IMG/VR virus record: IMGVR_UViG_2778261180_000002
Span: 1-42,016 of that record
Reading direction: 5' to 3' (one strand)
Length of the DNA: 42,016 nucleotides
Origin: a virus
Lineage: Duplodnaviria > Heunggongvirae > Uroviricota > Caudoviricetes
The notes under the pieces are model-generated. The model saw nothing but the letters and a program-made list of their open reading frames with translations. It ran no database searches and was not told the origin of the DNA. The translations under genes and the position numbers were made by a program. Numbering within the stretch: position 1 is the stretch's first letter; each line of letters begins with the position of its first letter. This document shows positions 1 to 12,866 of this stretch, piece after piece.

Positions 1-475
<475 letters not shown>

Positions 476-1873
476 ATGCCGCGCACTGTAACACATAATC
501 CGGATAGCCCCAATAATGACGATGTTTTAGCCGCTTCTGAAAAATGGGACGCCTGTAAACCCCCCTATACCAGCGCACACATGAAAATCTGTGTTGCTGC
601 CGCCAAAATCATCCTCGCTGCTTCCGGCGTGGCTCGCCGTTCCAAATACGAAAAAGAGAACTATCTCCGTATCGATTTCAGCAAAGCCGGTAAGGTTACA
701 TTTTACGCCGAGTTTCCAAAAAAGATGGGCCTCAAAGGTAAAAAGCTCGGCGAGTGGCCGGAGCTCGCTATCCAGCTGGCGCGCGAAAAAGCACTAGGTA
801 TGGCTGACGGTGGACTGCGGGCAGAGTCCGTACATGCAGCGCTGGAAATGTACCGGGATGACCTCAAAGCCAAAGTAGCCCGTCAGAAGCTGAGCCCGGA
901 CAGTTTCACAACCTACGGGGTGCGTATCGACCGGATTAAATCAACGTTCGGCGAGCGCGAGGTGTTCAGCGACGTAACATACAGTCGGCTGGTGGAAGTG
1001 CTGGACGAGTGGATCGCCACTCGCTCGAACAATAACGCCCTGGAGTTGTTTGCCGAGCTCCGTCGGTTCTGGAAGTTCTGCGCACCTACTCTTTGCAACG
1101 GCCGCAATGTTGCCGCCAGTCTGCCAGATGATTATGTTTCCTCCCGCGTACAGAAACCTACCCCCACACGGCTTTTTACCGATATTGAATCAATCGCCCG
1201 ACTCTGGCTCAATGTTGCTGCCTGCACCTCTGTACACCAGAAGAATGCTGTTCGCTTCATGATCATCACTGGTGTTCGTCCGATTAATGTCCATAACCTG
1301 CGCTGGGACTACGTTCACGAGGAGGCTGGTGAAATTGTTTATCCGGAAGGGGTTATCGGCATGCGAGGGGCTATGAAAACACAAAAGGCTTTCCGCCTGC
1401 CGATAACGCCTGAGATCCGGCGGATTATCGACGAGCAGAAAGCCTGGCGTGATTCAGTTCCTGAGTGCAACAGGGATTATGTATTTTTGCAGCCACGTGA
1501 TCCAATGCAGCCATTTTCAAAACGATCACTGGATAAGCTGGTGAAAACATACAGCCCGGACGGGGCTGTAAAAGGAATAAAACATGATGGGACTGTTAAA
1601 GGGAAAGACGGTGCATTTAATACGATGTGCCGTAAATTCCTTAAGAGCAATGTTATTGCCTTGATGAAGGAAAGAGGCTATTCCCGCTCAGACCGAAGGG
1701 AAATCAGCCTCCTTTGCCTTCACCACTCCAGCAAGTCAGATGACCCGATGGCAGAACATTACGACTTTTCTGATGAGATTTTACAGGAAGAGATTGCGTT
1801 GAAGCGCGAAGCTTTCGAGGCTCACGAGCGGAGCATACTTGCGCAGGTGGCATTGCTACGGCGGCGAGGTTAA
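476..1873 (+). CDS. int: phage integrase, tyrosine recombinase family (atypical, long)
   Basis: ORF open from TTG 470; ATG 476 follows AAGGA (465-469); alternative ATG 581. N-terminal segment (YLRIDFSKAGKVTFYAEF...) resembles P4-type integrase arm-binding domain. Position at prophage edge, convergent with an Xis-like gene. Catalytic motifs only loosely recognisable by eye. Confidence 0.8.
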   Translation: MPRTVTHNPDSPNNDDVLAASEKWDACKPPYTSAHMKICVAAAKIILAASGVARRSKYEKENYLRIDFSKAGKVTFYAEFPKKMGLKGKKLGEWPELAIQLAREKALGMADGGLRAESVHAALEMYRDDLKAKVARQKLSPDSFTTYGVRIDRIKSTFGEREVFSDVTYSRLVEVLDEWIATRSNNNALELFAELRRFWKFCAPTLCNGRNVAASLPDDYVSSRVQKPTPTRLFTDIESIARLWLNVAACTSVHQKNAVRFMIITGVRPINVHNLRWDYVHEEAGEIVYPEGVIGMRGAMKTQKAFRLPITPEIRRIIDEQKAWRDSVPECNRDYVFLQPRDPMQPFSKRSLDKLVKTYSPDGAVKGIKHDGTVKGKDGAFNTMCRKFLKSNVIALMKERGYSRSDRREISLLCLHHSSKSDDPMAEHYDFSDEILQEEIALKREAFEAHERSILAQVALLRRRG

Positions 1874-2070
1874 TACTGGCTGCGACATTTTTGAATAAAA
1901 GCGTCGACATTTCGGCGCTCATAACGAACTACTTTTGCACTGAAACGAATTGGTGCCAGGATAGCCCGATGACGATGCTTAATATTCCACTCACATAGCG
2001 TTTTCTGTGTAATACCTAACTTTTGGCATACTTCATCCGGGGTGAGTAAATCGTCGGGTTTCTCGCTCAT
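1870..2070 (-). CDS. small HTH DNA-binding protein, excisionase-like
   Basis: 66-aa ORF. ATG 2068-2070 overlaps the stop of the upstream helicase gene (ATGA coupling). Helix-turn-helix-like segment LTPDEVCQKLGITQKTL. Position next to integrase. Confidence 0.5.
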   Translation of the reverse strand: MSEKPDDLLTPDEVCQKLGITQKTLCEWNIKHRHRAILAPIRFSAKVVRYERRNVDAFIQKCRSQY

Positions 2071-3461
2071 GCTATACCTCTCTTTTTCATGGCATCGAGC
2101 AGGATGTCCTGCACTGTTCGTTTTGAGTTGCGCCGCTCCATCACCATTTCGTCCATAGTGTCGGCAGCAATAATGTGGTGAATAAATACCGGACGATTGT
2201 GTCCGGCCTGTATCTGTCTGGTTGGGCCGATACGTTCAATAATTTGCTGATACTGCTCCAGGTCCCACCAATGTGAGAAAAATACCAGTATGTTTCCGCC
2301 GTCCTGCATGTTCAGACCGTGGCCCGCGCTGGCTGGGTGTGCAAAGAGAACAGGAATCTTTCCGGAATTCCAGTCACGTAGTGTCTGTGGATCCTGGTCG
2401 AGGTGACGACCGCGAGGAAATGCTTTAAGCAAGCGTTCAAGATCGTGTTTCCAGTGATAAGCAACCAGCACAGGTGCGCCAGCTGCTTCGGTCAGTATGC
2501 TGTCCAGCGCCTGTAGTTTGGTGTCATGCAGTTCTGACCAACTTCCGGTGTCATCTGTGTATACTGCGCCGCTAGCGATTTGCAGACACTTCAGTGTCTT
2601 TGCCGCGGCGTTCGGTGCTTCGATGCCTTCGCCATTCAGCTCGAGGAACATTTCCTTTTCCATTTCACGATACTGCTGACGGGCCTTCGGCGGCATATCC
2701 ACGCGGATTACGTTATGGATGGGGTCTTTGATATCGAACCAGTCGGCCGCATCCAGCGAGAGAGTCACATCGGCTAACGCTCGCTGTATTTCACCCTGTG
2801 AGTGAGCAAACGGCTCCAGTTTGGTCCAGCTCTGCCCCGGAAACTGTATTGAGTTGAACCAGCGTGAGGTAAACGCGCCGTAAGTGCGCCCGAGACGTTG
2901 CCCCTGGTCCACAAACCACGATTGTCCCCACAAATCTACCAGGCCGTTCGGTGCTGGCGTACCGGTGAGATTTATCCAGCGCCGGACATACTTATGCGCC
3001 ACTTTGCCAAGCGCCGCCGCGCGCTTACCACCACCTCGCAGCCGGAAGGATTTTAGCCGGGTGCTTTCATCTGGAATGACAGTACCGAACGGCCATCGTT
3101 CTCCCAATTCTTCAACCAGCCAGACAAGGCTATCGTAGTTGATTGTGAACACGCTTGCGTTGCTGTTCGCCAGCGCCATAGAGCGCGCTTTGGCATTACC
3201 AACAATTGGCTGCACCTCGATATTGCGTAAATGCCCCCACTTCACTGCTTCATCCGGCCAGGTGTTTGCTGCAACACGTAGCGGTGCGAGGACCAGTGCG
3301 GGGCGTGTTTCTGCCCCTGCCATAAAGAGATCTTCCAGCGCAGTGAGCGTTGCCACGGTTTTACCCATTCCCATACCTGCCCAGATGTTGCCGCGCATGA
3401 TGTCGATTTCGTGGCTGATAATGAGATCTTGGTAGGGGCGTGGCTTAAAAGCTTGTGTCAT
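2067..3461 (-). CDS. SNF2-family DNA helicase
   Basis: 464 aa. Walker A GMGKT, DExx box (VIPDEST), C-terminal helicase motifs. Typical phage replication-module helicase. Confidence 0.8.
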   Translation of the reverse strand: MTQAFKPRPYQDLIISHEIDIMRGNIWAGMGMGKTVATLTALEDLFMAGAETRPALVLAPLRVAANTWPDEAVKWGHLRNIEVQPIVGNAKARSMALANSNASVFTINYDSLVWLVEELGERWPFGTVIPDESTRLKSFRLRGGGKRAAALGKVAHKYVRRWINLTGTPAPNGLVDLWGQSWFVDQGQRLGRTYGAFTSRWFNSIQFPGQSWTKLEPFAHSQGEIQRALADVTLSLDAADWFDIKDPIHNVIRVDMPPKARQQYREMEKEMFLELNGEGIEAPNAAAKTLKCLQIASGAVYTDDTGSWSELHDTKLQALDSILTEAAGAPVLVAYHWKHDLERLLKAFPRGRHLDQDPQTLRDWNSGKIPVLFAHPASAGHGLNMQDGGNILVFFSHWWDLEQYQQIIERIGPTRQIQAGHNRPVFIHHIIAADTMDEMVMERRNSKRTVQDILLDAMKKRGIA

Positions 3462-3493
3462 AATGCTTTTCCACTCTTAAAGGAATAGAACAA

Positions 3494-3820
3494 ATGTTTA
3501 TTCAAGTTACACCCGGAATCACCATTGATGACTTCTTCAAGAATGGCGGTACGATTGAATACGAGATAACATCTGATGAAATTTCGCCAAATAATCCAAA
3601 TTTCGAAAATTGGGACTCCATAAAAGATTCTTTATATACTGGCTTTTATTTCCCTGTTTCTGACGCAATAACTCAGGGAGCTGTCGAGGCTACTCAAGTT
3701 ATCAACTATGCTGATGCCTGGACCAAACTGATTACGCGCGTTGAACGTCTTGGGGGTGAGGTTATTTATAAGAAATTAAATTCTGGAAAATTCTCTGCAA
3801 CTTTTAAGCTGAACATTTAA
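3494..3820 (+). CDS. hypothetical protein, AT-rich antisense moron
   Basis: 108-aa ORF, ATG 3494 with AAGGA about 10 nt upstream. Opposite orientation to the surrounding minus-strand operon. Visibly lower GC than flanks. No recognisable motifs. Confidence 0.5.
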   Translation: MFIQVTPGITIDDFFKNGGTIEYEITSDEISPNNPNFENWDSIKDSLYTGFYFPVSDAITQGAVEATQVINYADAWTKLITRVERLGGEVIYKKLNSGKFSATFKLNI

Positions 3821-4085
3821 TAATTTCCTCCAGATTTTTGCTATCCAGCACCACCACGGTAAAGCCCAGCTCGCGCAGCCGCTTGTGCTCGCGCAACTGG
3901 TCGGCGCGTGGTGCTTTGCCGGGTGCTTTGCATTCAACGAAAACAAGACGGCCGCCGGGTAGCAGAACAATGCGATCTGGTACCGAGCGGCGACCAGGTG
4001 ATATGAACTTAAAGGCGACCCCACCAGCCTTTTTCACTTCGTCGACGAGATGCTTCTCGATTAGGTTTTCACGTTCATAGGCCAT
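3804..4085 (-). CDS. VRR-NUC domain nuclease
   Basis: Motifs match recalled VRR-NUC pattern (LLPGGRLVFVECKAPGK). ATG 4083-4085 preferred; alternative ATG 4110-4112 would overlap the upstream gene by 38 nt. Confidence 0.65.
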   Translation of the reverse strand: MAYERENLIEKHLVDEVKKAGGVAFKFISPGRRSVPDRIVLLPGGRLVFVECKAPGKAPRADQLREHKRLRELGFTVVVLDSKNLEEIIKCSA

Positions 4086-4374
4086 CTGAATCCCACTCTT
4101 CAAAAAGCACATTCAATTCCAGTTTCTCTGCCAACGCATTTTCTGCACGTGCGCCGGCAGAGTACTCCCACTCTTTGAGCATATAAATCGTATCGGCACA
4201 GCGAAGCATTGCGAGGCAGATGTCCATGTACTGAGCCTGTGTCAAACCATCGGGTAAAGTTGCGGGGTTAAGCACAACATATCCCTTGTCCGTTAGCCTC
4301 TTTGCTGCGTAATGAAAGGCCGGGCGGTTAAATTGCTCGTAACCGCTCATCGGCCCGGCAATGTAAACGATCAT
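4075..4374 (-). CDS. DUF4406 / nucleoside 2-deoxyribosyltransferase-like protein
   Basis: 99 aa. N-terminal MIVYIAGPMSG motif typical of this fold. ATGA overlap with the upstream gene. Confidence 0.55.
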   Translation of the reverse strand: MIVYIAGPMSGYEQFNRPAFHYAAKRLTDKGYVVLNPATLPDGLTQAQYMDICLAMLRCADTIYMLKEWEYSAGARAENALAEKLELNVLFEEWDSDGL

Positions 4375-4586
4375 TCTTCGACCGCCTTACGCTTTTCACG
4401 CATATTCTGCATCAGGCAAAAATCAGATCTGCGTTCACTCCATTCCTGATTCAGTTCGTGATGTGATTCGCGGTTGGCTTTTGCCCAGACCTTCGCTGCC
4501 CGGTCATATTCGCCGGATTGTTCAAGTCGCAAAGCCTCCCTTGCAGCCCTGTAATAAAGTGGATTATCCCGGTATTTAAATGACAT
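4371..4586 (-). CDS. hypothetical small protein
   Basis: 71-aa ORF with ATG and AAGGA about 9 nt upstream; coupled to the downstream gene. Function unknown. Confidence 0.5.
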   Translation of the reverse strand: MSFKYRDNPLYYRAAREALRLEQSGEYDRAAKVWAKANRESHHELNQEWSERRSDFCLMQNMREKRKAVEE

Positions 4587-4591
4587 AGGAG

Positions 4592-6667
4592 TTAATCCTT
4601 ACGGTAGCGGTACGCCTCAAAACCGCCAGCGTTCAGTGGGATATCGGGCGCCCATTCGGGGTTAGTGGAGAGAAGCGCGGAAAGCGCTTTATCGTTGAAA
4701 TCTTCTGTGTCAGGTGATTCGGTGATCACCTCGTCGTGTACCGTCAGCACAATGCTGTAACCGGCATCTTCGATAAGCGGCATGTTTCCGGCCAGAACGT
4801 CGCGGGCGGCCGCCTGGGTGACGTTCTCCACCAGCTTTCCGCCGTAGGTTTTGAGTCGTTGCCATTTACGCGAATAAGAGTTAACACCCATGTAGGTGAT
4901 ATTCCCTTGTTCGATAACCGGAGACGGGTAGCATACAGCGCGTCCGGATGGTAGCTGTATGCGCAGCCACGCGCCATCGCGGCGGATTTTAAGATAACCG
5001 CAATACAATGTTTTTTGCGGTGTGGCGATTGCTGTGCGGACAGTGCGCTCCAGCTCGTACCAGAAATCGCAGGTCGCCGGGTGCGCCCTGCGCCAGAGAC
5101 GTTTAAGTGAGTCGCAGGCGATAAATACCCGTTCAGAAAGCCCGTAGGTTGACTTACGTTTAACCGATTCGTCGTACCAGCTTTTCGCCTCGCGGATAAC
5201 ATCGTGGGGAATGTTTGGCAGTGCGGCGTTCGCCAGCTCGTCGAGATCGAGACCGTAAACCAGAGCAAAAGTGATGAAAGCCGATACACCACCTCCATAA
5301 CCCAGACCGAGTTCCATGACTTTACCGATCTGACGCATGTGTTTATCAACATCATCTGGTGCAATATCGAAAACTTTTGCATACGCTAGTTTATATAAGT
5401 CCGGACCCGTTCCGGCGTCGTACTCTCTGAATGCATTCAGTTTCCATTCTTCTCCCGCCAGCCATGCCAACATACGGCCTTCAATGTTCGACAAGTCACT
5501 TACCACCAGTTTTTTGCCTGTTGGCGCGATAATGCAGCCACGTAACGCTGAACTGGTTAGTTCCATGATATTGTCAAACAGCAGGTCTGCACATCCGGCT
5601 TTCAGTGCTTCGATGCCTTCGTCTATTTGTTCCTGTTTTAGTGAAGGGCGGGGAAGATTCTGGGGCTGGAATAGCCGTCCGGCCCAACGACCGGTACGTG
5701 ACGCCCCGCAGAACTGTAGCGTACCGCGTAAGCGCCCGTCGTGGCTTACGCCTTTCATCAGTGCCTTGTATTTACTGGTGCTGGTAGTACTGGCTTGCAG
5801 GCGGATAGCCAGTAATTCTTTCACGGCAGATGGTAAATTGGGGTCGGCTATACGACGTTCCAGGGTGCTGCGTTGCATGTCTGGCAGCTCCACACCGTAG
5901 GATTCAACAATGTGCTTAATCAACGCGTCTCGTTGTGTGGCTGCCTGCACTTCGCCATCAGTCATTTCCTGTGTACGCTTTGCCAGGCGCTTTTGCTCCT
6001 GGTCTACCGCTTCGATCGCAGCGCGCGCGAGTTGCATGTCCATGCAGACGCCCCGGTCGTTGATCTGTTGATCACGATGCCAGAGCGCCAGCTCTGTCCC
6101 CTGATAATTCCACTTCGGCAGACGTTTATAGACTTCGCGCATTGCCTCAATATCCAGTCCGGCGTAAGCAACAAAGCGCCGCCATTCTTCCGGGTGGGTT
6201 TTGCTGGTGGCACGGCGCAGTTTGCTGTTTTTCGGGCGTGGCTTACAGAACAGCTGGATCAGCGCTTTACCGTCTTTGTTCTTCGCTTTGTCTTGCGGGA
6301 CGCCGAGTATTTCGCAGAGTTCCCCCAGAGACCCCGGGAGACCGTGCGCCAGCGCCTGCACCATTGTGTCTCGCCAGCGTTTGGCACTACCTGCAACAAC
6401 ACATTGGGGAGTGTGCAGCAATGCATGGCGCAACATGGTGCGATCGAAATGGCTGTTGTGTGCATATATTAGTACGCTCTCATCGCTGAGAGCTGTCAGT
6501 AGTCGTGTCGGCAAGTTATAGTCTGTGGTTAAATCGTGTACGCTGACGGGGTCTTCGTCGATTGCCCATGCGAATAACATGATTTCGACTCCTTCTGCAT
6601 AGACATGGGTGCCGTTTTTTATTGGGATTTCGCTGAAAGTTTCGAGGTCTAACCAAAGTTTTTGCAT
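4592..6667 (-). CDS. family A DNA polymerase (PolA/T7-like) with 3'-5' exonuclease domain
   Basis: Exo motif LWLDLETFS near N-terminus; polymerase motifs ([16 protein letters not shown]). Start taken as ATG 6665-6667; the track start at 6709 is a TTG inside a terminator hairpin and is unlikely. Confidence 0.85.
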
Positions 6668-6696
6668 CAAGTAAGGACCCGTTGGATTTAATAAAT

Positions 6697-6724
6697 AAAA
6701 AGCCGCCAAAATGGCGGCTTTTTA
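6697..6724. terminator. bidirectional rho-independent terminator-like hairpin
   Basis: AAAAA-GCCGCC-AAAAT-GGCGGC-TTTTT. A-run on one side and T-run on the other, so it is terminator-like on both strands. On the minus strand it directly follows the SIR2-like gene stop (6744) and precedes the polymerase start. Confidence 0.7.
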
Positions 6725-6743
6725 TAACCGAAGTTAAGAATGC

Positions 6744-8225
6744 TTAATATGATAAATAATCATACAAGCATAAAAGTCGCCTGTATTGGGTATCAATTTT
6801 ATGCCCTGGTTTTGTTAAATAATCTCGTAGTTGTTTCAATGAAATAGTATCATTTAGTACGCAATACATAATCGTGTTAGCAACTTTATACTCTTTCGTT
6901 TCTTTTAGTATTTCATCAATAGACACAGCCTCACTCTTACATGTTTTAATTCGAGAAAGGTTACCAATGATTTTATCTAGCTGCCGTTTTCTGTATGTCT
7001 CGGTATTTTCTAGTTCAGGGCAGATAGAACTAAAAGCGTATATTGGAAAGTGTTCGCTATTAGCTATGGTTTGCTTATTCAGTAATGCGATAAGCTGAGA
7101 GTTTGCTTCGTCAACTATTTTAAAATAGTTCTGTATCATTTCAGATTTTGTTTGATAAACATATTGTACGGTTCTTTCTGAACCAACAGCAATGACCATT
7201 TCATCATTGCGAAGTTCATCTAAATTTTCTGTAATTTTAACCTTTATCTCACCACCACTTTTGATGGTACTCCAAACTTTTTGAACCTTTCTTATGTCCA
7301 TTGCGGATACTGGCAAAACTAGTCCAGAGATGGCATCATATACAGCTTTGTAATTGTTTGTTTTTATTTTGTTTATTCTTATGATAGACATGCCTTCTAT
7401 ATCTATGTCATGCTCCGTAATTTCAGTTGACATGCTGTCTTTTTCGTATTCAACCAAAAGAAAATTATCTTTTATCCTTTTTGCAAGTTCGGTATTTAAG
7501 TCAACGTATGAGAATATGGTTTTTAATAAGTACTTAATGTTTTTATCGCTAATACTATACCCTATAAATATGATAGGGTTGTGTATGAATATTGAGAGTA
7601 ATTGAGCGCGAATTAACTCATATTTATTGTCGAAGTTTGCGTAGTCTTCACCTGTGATAATTATGTTGTTAGGATCACTAACACAGCCATGTATTTTGTA
7701 AACTGAACCGTATGGGTTACTTAAAAGAATGTTGTTACCAATCAGTGGGTTAAATTCGAAGATATTCTCTACGAGTTGGTCGTAGTTTGTTGTAATGATG
7801 GAGCCTATGTTTTTTCTTGTTTTTATTAAGCTGTTTATTTCCTCCATCATTGACTCTTTTATCTTTAGGTCTTTAAGTATTGAAGTTAAATAAATTTTGA
7901 ATCGACTTAGTTTTTTTCCTTTTTTCATGTGCTCATAGAAAACATCATTGATGTCTTTGAACTTACCGTTACGATCTTCTGCCAGCTTTTTATTAAAAAT
8001 ATCTTCAAGTTTTGTAGCTAAGATATCATATCGATAGTCGTCACCTTCTAGGCTTTCAGCTTTCAAATCGTAGTAAAACTCAGCATTACCGGTTAGTTCC
8101 ATTGCGACACTCAAAAGAAGACCATCCCAGCTAAATGAGTTTTCTAGATACCGTAGGCTAAATCCTGTTCCAATGAATAGAACAGGGTGGTTTTTATAGT
8201 GATTTACAAACTCTTGGATTTCCAT
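6744..8225 (-). CDS. SIR2-like (SIR2_2 / ThsA-type) domain protein with unassigned C-terminal domain; candidate defence moron
   Basis: ORF open from GTG 8246; ATG 8225 (MEIQEF...) likely the real start. N-terminal half carries SIR2_2-type motifs VLFIGTGFS, IITTNYDQL, KIHGCVS...IITGEDY. C-terminal ~250 aa has no recognisable domain. Markedly AT-rich versus flanks; own downstream terminator. Confidence 0.65.
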   Translation of the reverse strand: MEIQEFVNHYKNHPVLFIGTGFSLRYLENSFSWDGLLLSVAMELTGNAEFYYDLKAESLEGDDYRYDILATKLEDIFNKKLAEDRNGKFKDINDVFYEHMKKGKKLSRFKIYLTSILKDLKIKESMMEEINSLIKTRKNIGSIITTNYDQLVENIFEFNPLIGNNILLSNPYGSVYKIHGCVSDPNNIIITGEDYANFDNKYELIRAQLLSIFIHNPIIFIGYSISDKNIKYLLKTIFSYVDLNTELAKRIKDNFLLVEYEKDSMSTEITEHDIDIEGMSIIRINKIKTNNYKAVYDAISGLVLPVSAMDIRKVQKVWSTIKSGGEIKVKITENLDELRNDEMVIAVGSERTVQYVYQTKSEMIQNYFKIVDEANSQLIALLNKQTIANSEHFPIYAFSSICPELENTETYRKRQLDKIIGNLSRIKTCKSEAVSIDEILKETKEYKVANTIMYCVLNDTISLKQLRDYLTKPGHKIDTQYRRLLCLYDYLSY

Positions 8226-8336
8226 ACCGATTCTCAAAGTTGACACGTAATACCTCTATAAAAACAAATAGCCGTAAAAATTCCAATAGCTTTTTGGATC
8301 TCGCCCGGCGTGTAACCGGGCGTCTATGAAGAAGGG

Positions 8337-8885
8337 TTAAATCAGTGCTTCAGCATCAGCACCTTCGCTGATATCGTCGAAATCGTCAGCGCTTGCCACT
8401 CCGCCGCCAGCGAATGCATCGCCGTCTCGCAGGAACTGGACTCCGCCGAGTGAGGCATTAATGCGTTTACCGAAATTATTGTCCTGTGCCCAGATATCGA
8501 TAACGGCGTTTACATAGCACCCTGCATAGGGACGTCCGTCAGCCTGAATTAGTGGCGAACGATCGCGATCAAGAACAGCTGGGCGCGCTTTGTTAGCAGC
8601 GTTCAGGAAGAAATTGCCGGGAAAGCCTTCATACTCTGCTTTTTCATCACCATCATGCAGGCACAGATTGAGTTTTTTCTCCAGCTGGTTATAAATGGAC
8701 TCCCACTTCTCTCCCCATTTTTCCTTCGCTACCTGCTTCATAGCTTTACGGATTTCTTCCAGTTGTGGGTGTTTGGGAGACATTAAAAATACTGCGGAGA
8801 AACGCGGATCGCCTTCGCCGTTTACAGTTTTAGCTTCAAACAGAGACGGGAAGGCCAGACGAACATTGTTCAGCTTCAGTTTCAT
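8337..8885 (-). CDS. putative phage ssDNA-binding protein (DUF2815-like)
   Basis: 182 aa beginning MKLKLNNVRLAF, as I recall for DUF2815 phage proteins. Acidic C-terminal tail (DDFDDISEGADAEALI) like SSB C-termini. Adjacent to the nuclease gene. Confidence 0.5.
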   Translation of the reverse strand: MKLKLNNVRLAFPSLFEAKTVNGEGDPRFSAVFLMSPKHPQLEEIRKAMKQVAKEKWGEKWESIYNQLEKKLNLCLHDGDEKAEYEGFPGNFFLNAANKARPAVLDRDRSPLIQADGRPYAGCYVNAVIDIWAQDNNFGKRINASLGGVQFLRDGDAFAGGGVASADDFDDISEGADAEALI

Positions 8886-8900
8886 GGGGATTTCCTTAAA

Positions 8901-10202
8901 TCAGATGAGGTCTGCGGTTAGCGTATCGTCGGATACGTCGTCGAAATCATTTACAGGGTTGATATTGAGTGCGGGGCGTGGGTCTGACTCGGGAACGACG
9001 GTGGGTTTACCATCAGCTCGTGTTATCAGTGCCTCGACTTTTGACCAACGGCGCGGACTGGCCTTTTTGATAAGTTTTTCGGCTTTTGTGGGACTAATAA
9101 GTTTAAAGTCGAATACTTCTTCAGTTTTGTACCTGAACTGGTCCTTCAGAAGTGCGCGAGCTGCCTCTTCGTCACTCCAGGCCCGGTTACCTTGTTTTCC
9201 TGTTACCAGTTTAAACCCCGGTACCGGATGTCCGGCATTGAGTTCATTGTGAACCCGGTCCCGTACTGCCTTTAGCCAGGATTCAATAAAGTCGGCCTGG
9301 CTATAGATCTCTGCAAGCTGCTCAATGGTTAACAGAGGTACACGTGCGCTGGCATTGGTGATTATTTCGCTGACAGGCTTTGTCAGATCTTCAAAATCGC
9401 TGGCCGCTGTTTGTAAATGCTGCATTTTCTGGGCAGTGCAAATAGCTTTTGCTTTACAGAAGCGGCACTGTTTTTCTCCAGGTATGAAGTTTTCCAGCGG
9501 TAGTGTCTCAATGCCTTCGCATTCAGCAATATTGAGAACAAGGATCGCACTGGTTGCGGCCTCCAGTGCCCGTTCACCGAAAGACTGAAGTTCCTGTACG
9601 GTTAAAGACCATTCTGAAACGTGGTTGAGCCTTGGTTGGTGAATAAATAATCTTACAGTCTCAAAGTCATACAGCATGCTGAATTGTTCGAGAGCACCCA
9701 GAGCATACAGTTGTAGTTGCTCATTTTGTTCTGCGTCAATGCGGACGCCTTTGCCATATTTCAGGTCGTGGATTTGTAATTCGTTACCAGCGATGATTAT
9801 GCCGTCGGCAGTTCCGAAAGATTCTTCCACCCCCGTTATATGTGAGAAATCAACACGTTGTTCAACCAATAGCTCATTATTTTGTGCAAGAGTCCAGACC
9901 GTATCAACATACCGGCCAACGGCTTCGACCATTTCATCATCCACCTGTGGGCCAGATGTATCATCAGGATTTTCGCGAAGGGGGTATGAGCCGAGAAACA
10001 TAGAAACATTGCATCCGGCGTAGTGTTCCGGGTGGCTTTGCCTGTTTCGTAGAACTTTTTCAGCAAGCGCGTGCGCTGCAGTGCCCTCGATTGCAAAAGT
10101 TGTTTCTTTATCCGGTTGTGTGGCCTCCAGCGCCAGACTTCCTGGGCAGCGCATCCATCGATGCGCCGATGACGGGGAAAGTCGTGCATGAACGTCTGGC
10201 AT
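8901..10202 (-). CDS. PD-(D/E)XK nuclease, Cas4-like (DUF2800-like)
   Basis: 433 aa. N-terminal [15 protein letters not shown] and a C-terminal Cys cluster ([10 protein letters not shown]) fit recalled DUF2800/Cas4-like phage exonucleases. Confidence 0.65.
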
Positions 10203-10204
10203 AA

Positions 10205-11107
10205 TTAACCCTCCAGTGCTTTTTCAGCCAGGGTGATTACTTCAGCGAGATTTTCATCCGTTACTTCACCAAGTTTCCTGGCTCCCTGTTTTTCCAGAAT
10301 TGCAATAGCTTCTGCCCGGTAACCCCCTTTTGCTAACTGGAGGATCAACCCTTCAGCTTGTTTGCGTAGTGCCGCGAAATCAATTGTATGGTCATCTTTG
10401 GCGTCATTATTCTGGCTGGAATTTGCTGCGTCTCTGCGTGCAAATTCTTCCTGCAGCTGAAGGTACTCAACACGGTTGATCTCGATATGGCCTTTTTTCA
10501 GCATCTCGTTCAACTTGCGTAAGGTGTGGAGTTCACTGGCTGCTGTGCCGGATACATTTTTGACGTAAAACGGCCCCGTGCGTTCTCCATCTTTGTTACT
10601 GGCCTTTTTCGGCTTAACTTCATCACGCCCATCCGCAGGTGCATCAAGTAGCTGCTCGGCAAAAGCACGCCGCTCGCCGATGGTTGGCAGGTCGTCCCAG
10701 AACTTAAGGATGTTACGGGACAGGTCCAGGAGAGCAGGTTTAAGCAGCGCCCTGGCTCGTTTGACGCCCTGCAATGCGCTGTCGAGAGCATCAATCTGAA
10801 CTACTCGTTTATCGCCTTCAGCATCACGGTAGGCAACAGCACGTTGCAGCATGTCTTCTGTGATAGGGGTGGCTACCGGGTAGAAACCAGCCAGTGCGAT
10901 AACGTCGCTGAACTCCAGATCATCCAGTGTCATTGCCGCTGACATATTTTCAGTTTCAGTTGCTGTATCCCGACATTCCTGCACTCGTGAAATCGTGTCA
11001 GGATGCATAACAATACCTGATGCCATTGTGCGGATAAGACGTTCAAGCAGCGCATTATGTTGTGCCAGAAGTTGATTATTAAGTTCGAGACTGGTTTCTA
11101 AACTCAT
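10205..11107 (-). CDS. hypothetical protein (early operon)
   Basis: 300-aa ORF, ATG 11105-11107 overlapping the upstream ORF stop (ATGA). No recognisable motifs. Confidence 0.55.
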
Positions 11108-11286
11108 ACTGTGGTCCTCGCTACAAGGAGAATGAAAGTGATGATCAGACCGAGCGCAGTGGCAACGGCCAGACCGGTCATCAAATCGAAGTTTTTACGG
11201 CGATAACGGAGAACATCGCGCCCCGTCAGTCGATGGAGGTATTCAGGTTTCATCGGTTGTATTCCTTTTTTCATATCGGGGAGCAC
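11104..11286 (-). CDS. hypothetical small protein with C-terminal hydrophobic helix
   Basis: 60-aa ORF (GTG 11286 or ATG 11274). Weak ribosome-binding site. C-terminal segment LAVATALGLIITFILLV looks transmembrane. Confidence 0.3.
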   Translation of the reverse strand: MLPDMKKGIQPMKPEYLHRLTGRDVLRYRRKNFDLMTGLAVATALGLIITFILLVARTTV

Positions 11287-11369
11287 GCTGTTGCGAGTGT
11301 GCTTTCAGACATAAAAAAGCCCGTCACGTGAGGCGGGCAAAGACTACACACAGCAATTACATGGATGAT

Positions 11370-11564
11370 TCAGTTGGTATTGTGCGTACGTGGTACCACA
11401 AGGTTGAAGCGGACACGCCAGTGCGTTGCAATGGTATGCAGGAAAGCACCACATCCAGGGCAGTGCTCATAACATTCGTTGATTTGGTATCGTTTTGGCT
11501 TTGGTGTCTGAAGCTGTGTTTGGCAAGCAGGGCATTCACTTTTGAGCGGTTTATACGTTTTCAC
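11370..11564 (-). CDS. small zinc-ribbon-like protein
   Basis: 64 aa, GTG start with GAGGAAA upstream. CPAC...CPGC Cys pairs. Sits between CI and the early-left operon where small regulators usually are. Confidence 0.4.
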   Translation of the reverse strand: MKTYKPLKSECPACQTQLQTPKPKRYQINECYEHCPGCGAFLHTIATHWRVRFNLVVPRTHNTN

Positions 11565-11823
11565 GCCGTTTCCTCATTCAGTTCACTTTGGTGGTTCGGC
11601 GGCTTCGACCCAGTGCTTCGCCGCACCCCAAAGGGAACTTACTGACCCGTATTGCCGACATCCTGTCCCGCCACGGTCCCGACGCATGGTTTAGAGTCGC
11701 GCCGTTCGACTTGTGGTTAAAATATCTGTGTATAGACATCTTAACTTCACGTGTATAGTTAAGACTTCTAAACTCACAAAGTCAAGTGTTATGGTTAAGA
11801 AAAGTGAACTTTTTCGGATAGGT

Positions 11824-11850
11824 AAAGAAAAGCCCGCTTAGGAAGCGGGC
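11824..11850 (-). terminator. rho-independent terminator downstream of the repressor gene
   Basis: Perfect 8-bp stem GCCCGCTT/AAGCGGGC with 3-nt loop (11832-11850), followed on the minus strand by TTTTCTTT. Lies just after the CI stop codon. Confidence 0.7.
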
Positions 11851-11874
11851 ATGTGGTATAGAGTGAATTTACGC

Positions 11875-12567
11875 TCAGAGCAGAACGGAGTACCAAAATA
11901 CTTGGCCTATAATCCTGATTTTATTAGCCTCTTGATTAAAATACTCTTCGTCTGCGTATTCATCCCTATTGAAAGAGCGTATCCGGAGTCCGCTTGGGAG
12001 ACGGTACAATAGTTTGACACGAAGTAATCCGTCTTGGTCTATAGCGTACATTTGACCATCTTTTACACCTGTTTTTGATGTATCTATGCCGACGACAGCG
12101 CCATCCGGTAATACCGGTTCCATGCTGTTGCCGTGGATACTGACACAAGCCGCACAATTTACGTCAACACCTGCTTTGCGCAACGTTGAACGGGCGAATC
12201 TTAACTTACATCCCATTCGATCTATATCAACATAAGTACCATTACCGGCAGATAGCTCAATTTCCTGATAGAACGGTATTTCCACTTCATCATCCTCTAA
12301 TGGCGTTGATGAGTCCCATACAGAAAACCCTCCCTCAACTTGTGCATTAGAATGTATTTCTTTGGTATCGCTTGTTTTGCCTGAAAGTAGCCACTCTGGA
12401 GAAACGTTCAATGCTTCGGCCAGATTTATAAGATTTTTCCCGTTAGGTGTGGTGTTTCCGGATTCCCATTGTGAAATCGTGGCTTTAGTTAGACCAATAC
12501 GTTTAGCAAGCGCATCCTGCGTTAGGTGGACATTGCGACGAGCCTCGCGAATACGATCATTAATCAT
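11875..12567 (-). CDS. cI: CI-like repressor (HTH_XRE + S24 LexA-like peptidase)
   Basis: N-terminal HTH (LTQDALAKRIGLTKATISQWESG). C-terminal S24 motifs (GNSMEP ... later Lys). Divergent from a Cro-like gene. Confidence 0.9.
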   Translation of the reverse strand: MINDRIREARRNVHLTQDALAKRIGLTKATISQWESGNTTPNGKNLINLAEALNVSPEWLLSGKTSDTKEIHSNAQVEGGFSVWDSSTPLEDDEVEIPFYQEIELSAGNGTYVDIDRMGCKLRFARSTLRKAGVDVNCAACVSIHGNSMEPVLPDGAVVGIDTSKTGVKDGQMYAIDQDGLLRVKLLYRLPSGLRIRSFNRDEYADEEYFNQEANKIRIIGQVFWYSVLL

Positions 12568-12680: not shown

Positions 12681-12866
12681 ATGAAAAAAGCAGAAGCAAT
12701 TGAGCTTGCAGGAAGTAAAGCGAAACTAGCGAGACTATTGAAGGTTTCCAAAGGAGCCGTATCTCAATGGGGGGAGGAAATCCCAGAGTTAAGAGCTCTT
12801 CAACTTGAAAAGATTTTGGAGCAAAAAAATGTAGTCAAACAAAAAGGCTTAACCCATGTCCGATAG
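12681..12866 (+). CDS. cro: Cro-like HTH regulator
   Basis: 61 aa with HTH (KAKLARLLKVSKGAVSQW). Divergent from cI. Its stop overlaps the primase start. Confidence 0.75.
   Translation: MKKAEAIELAGSKAKLARLLKVSKGAVSQWGEEIPELRALQLEKILEQKNVVKQKGLTHVR

Follow-up and report, generated by a model that had tools for sequence, protein, structure and literature searches.

Classical morons, the extra prophage genes expressed during lysogeny, include rexAB of lambda, gp15 of HK97 and sieA/sieB of P22. Hotspots lying between the core genes of prophages act as reservoirs of antiviral genes (Rousset et al. 2022, PMC9122126). In mobile integrons, at least a third of the tested cassettes of unknown function conferred phage resistance (Kieffer et al., bioRxiv 10.1101/2024.07.02.601719), and the protective cassettes, like those of the chromosomal integrons of Vibrio (bioRxiv 10.64898/2026.03.17.712381), are often devoid of recognisable domains. 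Here we analyse a small gene found in a viral stretch of 42,016 nucleotides, referred to below as the window. The kind of feature to which it belongs, an AT-rich moron lodged in a hotspot, is well known, and its family, although listed as PHROG 28127 and annotated in RefSeq as hypothetical protein, is uncharacterised.

A small antisense gene in the early-left operon

The host element is a temperate E. coli prophage of the myovirus type, integrated beside yfhL (1-261, minus strand). At its left end, the gene for a tyrosine integrase of 467 aa (470-1873, plus strand) converges with that of a 66-aa excisionase-like protein of the AlpA type (HTH_17, PF12728; 1870-2070, minus strand). The leftward block contains, in order, the HTH, SNF2, VRR-NUC, DUF4406, PerC-like, family A DNA polymerase, SIR2, Enc34-type ssDNA-binding and DUF2800 genes, and all the identified genes between the CI/S24 repressor (11875-12567, minus strand) and position 1870 are on the minus strand. 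A 61-aa ORF (12681-12866, plus strand) occupies what is, by position alone, the place of cro, and a VapE-type primase is encoded beyond it on the plus strand. The induced phages vB_EcoM-606R2, 689R2 and 611R5 are related to this prophage, with 97% identity over 64% of the region 1870-12000. Relatives that share the replication module carry other integrases and are inserted at other sites, near rcsD or near sbcB.

The small ORF (3494-3820, plus strand) opens with an ATG, encodes 108 aa and belongs to PHROG 28127. It lies between two conserved flanks on the minus strand: on one side the gene of an SNF2-family helicase of the early-left operon (2067-3461; SNF2-rel_dom, E 2.6e-12), and on the other that of a VRR-NUC nuclease of the PD-(D/E)XK type (3804-4112; PHROG 93 endonuclease, E 1.8e-31). 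The VRR_NUC Pfam match of the latter ORF is weak (E 0.026), and RefSeq places the start of this gene at the position equivalent to 4085. The leader of the small ORF (3462-3493, 32 nt) begins directly after the SNF2 start codon and includes a Shine-Dalgarno-like AAGGAA (3480-3485) located 8 nt (3486-3493) before the ATG, or 9 nt when counted from the AGGA core. At the other end, the ORF positions give a tail-to-tail overlap of 17 nt with the VRR-NUC gene (3804-3820). These coordinates and the AAGGAA sequence agree with an earlier note, which had described a plus-strand ORF of 108 aa, preceded by a ribosome-binding site, between an SNF2 helicase gene and a VRR-NUC gene that it overlapped by 17 nt; the SNF2-rel_dom and PHROG 93 matches bear out the identity that it had given to both neighbours.

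The interval is AT-rich, as the same note had stated. We measured about 38% GC for the small ORF and about 55% in the flanks. Along the sequence, the GC content is 0.385-0.395 over 3401-3800, and rises to 0.545-0.565 in SNF2 (3101-3400) and to 0.535-0.555 in VRR-NUC (3801-4100). This contrast between low-GC cargo and SNF2 (0.38 versus 0.54 in the window) is repeated in every locus that carries a family member and, judged by its low GC content, the small gene is horizontally acquired. The minus strand was also correctly described as devoid of an ORF across the interval, the longest one being of just 43 aa (3537-3668).

We then asked whether the ORF is a gene. The same ORF is annotated as a CDS in RefSeq (WP_089647683.1, "hypothetical protein") in E. 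coli OkiPb01695, with 99.9% DNA identity. The dN/dS ratio is 0.07 between the alleles of L010 (Klebsiella type) and L017 (Pectobacterium), with dN 0.15, dS 2.15 and 74% amino-acid identity, and 0.32-0.41 when the window gene is compared with those of loci L004 and L005. Moreover, Shine-Dalgarno-like sequences are kept in the homologous loci despite differing leaders. On the basis of the RefSeq CDS, the PHROG 28127 match, the 31 relatives detailed below and the purifying selection, 3494-3820 is a real gene, maintained under purifying selection. The copies of L004 (2985-3314) and L005 (3019-3348) differ from each other by about 10 amino acids and almost no synonymous changes (dN/dS about 1.5), and the near-invariant Trp76 is lost in family member P0003. 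Positive selection, decay or an assembly error could account for these two observations, and some copies of the family may therefore be decaying.

The SNF2/VRR-NUC interval as a cargo hotspot

The small gene fills a variable slot of low GC content that runs from the SNF2 start codon to the VRR-NUC stop codon (3462-3803). Among the 5426 complete E. coli genomes examined, 134 matched the flanks and a single one contained the small ORF; in the other 133, similarity starts at the VRR-NUC stop codon, and the conservation of the flanks ends exactly at the SNF2 start codon. The earlier note had named absence from related prophages, without consequence, as a sign against its interpretation. This absence was indeed seen in 133 of the 134 genomes, but it does not imply that the gene is non-functional; rather, it points to a gene that the phage can do without, as one would expect for a moron.

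Using the SNF2 helicase as a probe, we collected 43 loci from other Enterobacterales species. For 32 of them (36 of 59 sequences when the window and 15 earlier loci are included), we could locate both flanking genes and determine the length of the gap. From VRR-NUC to SNF2 the distance varies between -52 nt and 3.7 kb, and the GC content of the gap is usually lower than that of SNF2. Mechanical, unvalidated calls of ORFs of at least 50 aa sort its contents, which lie in either orientation, into about 50 distinct clusters. The identified occupants are Arc-like proteins, DUF6338, Dam and C5 methylases, Bro-N proteins, ANT/Rha antirepressors and TIR-like proteins. A second antisense family, with a GC content of 0.32-0.37, occupies the same slot in other E. 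coli prophages (265 aa, L002 2170-2967; 245 aa, L003 2268-3005), and neither of these two proteins has a match in Pfam, NCBIfam or PADLOC. We also considered other antisense occupants of about 107-113 aa as distant relatives of the small protein and rejected them, as they are Arc-like and the family HMM gives E > 10. The SNF2/VRR-NUC slot is a recombination-prone cargo hotspot. Since antirepressors, Bro-N proteins and methylases are found there too, the slot position in itself is not specific for defence.

Two other places of the operon vary among relatives. The gene of a 500-aa SIR2_2-domain protein (6744-8246, minus strand; PADLOC candidate PDC-S25, E 5e-158; GC about 0.32) sits in a second cargo hotspot, between the DNA polymerase and the Enc34-type ssDNA-binding genes, and its place is taken in relatives by Nmad5 (L001) or by a 507-aa SIR2_2 protein (L007). 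A third variable slot, between VRR-NUC and the DNA polymerase, holds in the window a DUF4406 gene (nucleoside 2-deoxyribosyltransferase-like, PHROG 355) together with that of a 71-aa PerC-like protein (4075-4586, minus strand), and in relatives YfbU with a 169-aa protein, a TIR-domain protein with an IS4 element, or a TIR-like protein.

Diverged members of the family, at 33-44% identity to the window protein, occupy the very same slot in the same antisense orientation and end 4-17 nt inside VRR-NUC, the overlap being of 4 nt in the alleles of the P0005 and P0007 types. The prophages that carry them differ in integrase and in attachment site. According to the cluster names, the window type occurs in E. 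coli and Enterobacter, the P0005 type in Providencia and Proteus, and the P0007 type in Klebsiella and Raoultella; L017 is from Pectobacterium. Across the loci, the identity of the flanks is 79-96% for SNF2 and 69-91% for VRR-NUC, and the similarity of the flanks does not track the allele type of the small gene. When the window is compared with L004 and L005, dS is 0.22-0.26 for the small gene, which is below the 0.77-1.0 of SNF2, indicating that the cargo has been exchanged independently of its flanks. A functional pairing of the small protein with the adjacent VRR-NUC was considered and rejected: between L005 and L010 the VRR-NUC proteins are 91% identical and the small proteins only 36%.

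The variety of the slot contents raises the question of whether the small gene is immune cargo at all. It might instead serve host physiology or prophage regulation, or be a passenger, decaying and currently without function in this strain. The regulators that share the slot (Arc-like, ANT/Rha, Bro-N) are in line with such a reading, as are the rarity of the gene in E. coli (one of 5426 complete genomes) and the relaxed constraint between L004 and L005. However, purifying selection acts across the diverged alleles, the confident predicted fold is conserved at 25-40% identity, an intact ORF with its ribosome-binding site has been kept repeatedly in several genera, and the protein has no DNA-binding or other regulatory domain. 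We therefore regard a non-immune or passenger gene as improbable.

A protein family on prophages, integrons and a plasmid

The window protein matches the PHROG 28127 HMM with an E-value of 1.2e-25 over residues 5-104 of 108, and all 33 aligned relatives match this PHROG and no other. Searched exhaustively with HMMER, 1.84 billion representatives yielded 31 relatives, nearly all of 102-122 aa and aligned end to end. A tblastn search of 50,697 phage records with the window protein and P0007 gave no match, and a scan of IMG/VR with an alignment of the close family retrieved none. No paper was found in the literature under the accession, PHROG 28127 or the names of the related phages.

The alignment displays the motifs NGG, FE, L-x-(T/S)-G-F-E-L-P-P-S, Y-G-D-x-W and G-G-x-I-x-Y-K-K-L. 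Residues F51, G88 and Y92 are invariant, and G18, G19, E38, L47, G50, W76 and A102 nearly so. Since the conserved positions are mostly glycine, aromatic or hydrophobic residues, plus one glutamate, the product most likely acts by binding another macromolecule and not by catalysis. The window protein has a pI of 4.5, a net charge of -5 and no hydrophobic segment; the family as a whole is soluble, with a median pI of 4.9 and a median net charge of -4. With the alignment of 33 sequences, AlphaFold2 reached a pLDDT of 91.9 and a pTM of 0.82 (pLDDT 65 with an alignment of 3 sequences). The predicted structure is a compact alpha/beta domain made of a strand, a helix, a strand, short helices, three helices and a beta-hairpin, and the predicted fold is retained at 25-40% identity.

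The homology and structure searches that the earlier note had suggested led only to PHROG 28127, whose function is not annotated, and to no fold relative. No model of Pfam, NCBIfam or PADLOC (PADLOC-DB 2.0, E <= 0.01) matches the window protein, in keeping with the statement of the note that it has no recognisable domain, and Pfam returned nothing for all 33 relatives. The best Foldseek hits in the PDB were histidine-kinase ATP-binding domains, but an E-value of 0.06 and TM-scores of 0.33-0.37 led us to reject a GHKL/Bergerat-fold ATP-binding domain. Among the predicted viral structures of BFVD there was no fold match. A sequence-profile match to fibrillarin in the PDB, covering 31 residues with an E-value of 0.15, was dismissed as chance.

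Outside the slot, relatives were found in quite different settings. In Vibrio vulnificus and V. antiquarius, the P0008 type forms a single-gene cassette, with a spacing of 518 nt between attC-like repeats of about 130 nt. In a Cellvibrio genome, P0042 closes a similar array as its final cassette. The family gene lies at 1862-2191 in L014, between repeats at 1665-1797 and 2183-2315, at 3782-4111 in L013, between repeats at 3574-3711 and 4092-4229, and at 6001-6330 in L060, between repeats at 5865-5975 and 6365-6509. The arrays themselves (L013 1-10111, L014 1-8191, L060 1-6600) are of the chromosomal integron type, with attC-like repeats of about 110-145 nt, and their other cassettes encode a PhdYeFM/ParE toxin-antitoxin, a GNAT acetyltransferase, a GyrI-like protein and Tae4. 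The window copy is not an integron cassette, sitting as it does in a prophage slot. The P0031 gene, close to the integrase of an unrelated prophage, lies on the plus strand and its immediate neighbours on the minus strand. In all, two unrelated prophage backbones have a family member in an antisense position. Finally, a Burkholderia megaplasmid has a copy within a series of small genes that follows a MazEF pair. The family thus moves as single genes on prophages, in integron cassettes and on a plasmid. The earlier note had spoken of an oppositely oriented moron, and both the variable slot and this single-gene autonomy elsewhere strengthen that description.

One clade of the family, found in prophages and islands of alphaproteobacteria, has a partner. 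In six loci out of six (L061, L064, L065, L066, L067 and L070), a 104-aa subfamily member is followed on the same strand, 8-9 nt downstream, by the gene of a CoiA_nuc-like PD-(D/E)XK nuclease of about 250 aa. The pair spans 6001-7080 in L061, 6001-7085 in L064, 6001-7073 in L065, 4001-5080 in L066 and L067, which duplicate the L061 type, and about 2180-3256 in L070; L061, L064, L066/L067 and L070 are Rhizobium-type loci. It occurs in two settings, antisense in the tail/lysis region of a prophage and, once, beside an AbiJ homologue. Neither gene of the pair has a match in PADLOC, and two metagenome scans, one with the 104-aa subfamily and one with its nuclease, returned nothing. A homologue of the CoiA-like nuclease was found neither in the window nor in the enterobacterial loci. 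It is possible that the two genes form a toxin/immunity or defence system not described before.

Such an arrangement leads to another explanation of the whole family, in which the small protein would neutralise a nuclease in the manner of an antitoxin or immunity protein. The alphaproteobacterial pair would then be a toxin or abortive-infection module, and the solitary copies orphan immunity or anti-defence genes, guarding the cell, or the prophage itself, against a related nuclease whose gene lies elsewhere. In type II toxin-antitoxin systems, the antitoxin gene usually lies upstream of the toxin gene, and the small protein is likewise acidic and encoded upstream, 8-9 nt before the CoiA_nuc-like gene in six loci representing two settings, one of them beside AbiJ. 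The small partner also diverges faster than the nuclease (46% versus 76% identity between L061 and L070), and the fast turnover of alleles would fit an arms race over specificity. However, no such nuclease lies beside the members of the Enterobacterales, Vibrio, Cellvibrio and Burkholderia or of the metagenomic prophage L062/L063. The window has no CoiA-like nuclease, and the adjacent VRR-NUC gene is convergent with the small gene and does not co-vary with its allele type. In addition, the nuclease has no PADLOC match, and the pair could consist of two morons travelling together. The pairing favours nuclease neutralisation, but most members are partnerless, and we consider it rather unlikely that this explanation holds for the family.

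Proposed role and comparison with known systems

Expression of the window gene can be approached through its signals and its orientation. By eye, a candidate extended -10 element (TGtCATAAT, 3456-3464, plus strand) with no good -35 sequence overlaps the reverse-complemented SNF2 start codon. CATAAT is invariant in 6 loci, but this conservation is uninformative because the hexamer contains the reverse complement of that start codon. A consensus scan detected no two-hexamer promoter upstream of the small ORF and no terminator downstream. The RNA structure predicted 3' of the stop codon was no stronger than that of shuffled sequences (z = -0.2), and an Rfam scan of 3000-4400 revealed no family. 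The gene is nevertheless oriented against the repressor-controlled leftward operon, and this orientation recurs in three unrelated prophage backbones. From this orientation and its recurrence, we infer that it is probably transcribed independently in the lysogen. The earlier note had suggested expression in lysogeny for such morons, with superinfection exclusion, anti-defence or host modulation as their roles, and these may apply to the window gene.

The orientation also bears on the possibility that the protein is a counter-defence factor of the phage itself, that is, an inhibitor of host immunity of the anti-CRISPR or anti-restriction type. The protein has the profile of such a factor: small, acidic, fast-evolving, of no known fold and encoded in the variable slot of a mobile element. 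Moreover, methylases, a classic anti-restriction cargo, are found in the same slot, and the plasmid copy lies within a run of small genes. Yet the gene opposes the early operon and would not be co-expressed with the early lytic genes, which makes counter-defence less likely than protection of the lysogen. Single-gene cassettes of chromosomal integrons are not an obvious home for a phage counter-defence gene either, and the predicted fold showed no similarity to the phage inhibitors solved in the PDB (anti-CRISPR, Tad, Acb, Ocr-type and others). Counter-defence thus appears to us very unlikely.

The explanation that we favour is that of an autonomous moron, probably expressed in the lysogen, whose product would be a small acidic binding protein that protects the lysogen. 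The gene would be a single-gene moron whose slot in the early-left (replication) operon is bordered by the SNF2 helicase gene and the VRR-NUC gene. Given its orientation against the leftward operon, a ribosome-binding site of its own and the possible extended -10 promoter, it is probably transcribed separately in the lysogen, and would meet interference from the opposing operon during lytic growth. The small, soluble and mildly acidic alpha/beta product would then bind and block another macromolecule, to the benefit of the lysogen, either by blocking a component of an incoming phage or by neutralising a nuclease. As no PADLOC, Pfam or NCBIfam model and no solved or viral predicted structure matched the protein, it is the genomic context that suggests a protective role, either in excluding phages or in neutralising a nuclease. 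Phage exclusion or defence is favoured by the locations in a prophage hotspot and in integron cassettes, by the SIR2 and TIR proteins in neighbouring slots, and by the published findings on antiviral genes of prophage hotspots and on phage-resistance cassettes cited above. The alphaproteobacterial copy that is both beside AbiJ and paired with a nuclease supports protection in general. Taken as a whole, this explanation is quite possible, and we advance it tentatively, stopping short of calling it probable. A bolder proposal would be that PHROG 28127 constitutes a new family of single-protein immunity, with a fold not seen before, spread over Gamma-, Beta- and Alphaproteobacteria in prophage hotspots, in cassettes of chromosomal integrons and on plasmids. 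Its members would bind and block a component of a phage or else a PD-(D/E)XK nuclease, and the alphaproteobacterial pair would be a new two-gene system; we hold this bolder proposal to be doubtful, although a serious prospect.

Several features place this gene above a routine hypothetical one: its predicted fold is confident and has no known relatives, its family occurs on mobile elements of three classes, and one clade is paired with a nuclease. The gene would define a cargo hotspot in widespread temperate phages of the Enterobacterales that share the SNF2/VRR-NUC/family A polymerase module, and it belongs to a compact family of about 105-110 aa carried by three kinds of mobile elements. A protective phenotype, if true, would extend the known repertoire by a single-gene system of very small size, and the nuclease pairing would give a mechanistic handle. 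If the gene has no protective effect, it will be one more hypothetical moron.

How does the locus compare with described systems? Like type II toxin-antitoxin or nuclease-immunity pairs, the alphaproteobacterial loci encode a small acidic protein, the faster-diverging partner, upstream of a PD-(D/E)XK nuclease; unlike type II toxin-antitoxin systems, the window gene is partnerless and its product lacks a DNA-binding antitoxin domain. The Vibrio and Cellvibrio members resemble the bacteriophage resistance integron cassettes (BRiCs) in being single small genes between attC-like repeats. The window copy differs from BRiCs by its location in a prophage, and there was no sign of the PHROG 28127 family among the tested cassettes. 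Furthermore, about a third of BRiCs encode membrane proteins (bioRxiv 10.1101/2024.07.02.601719), whereas the window protein is soluble.

The likeness to the hotspots of P2-like phages and P4-like satellites (PMC9122126) lies in a slot that is bounded by conserved core genes and whose content is swapped among close relatives, in the low GC content and the mostly uncharacterised genes of the cargo, and in the SIR2 and TIR proteins present in neighbouring slots of the operon. The backbone is different, being made here of SNF2, VRR-NUC, family A polymerase and DUF2800 genes, and the slot is inside an early operon. Unlike the defence cargo of those hotspots, the window gene matches no known defence gene and is known here from sequence alone. 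As for the classical morons, the window gene has no clear promoter/terminator pair and no sequence or fold similarity to them, but it resembles them in being an extra gene of deviant base composition, with its own translation signals and an independent orientation, that is dispensable for the phage.
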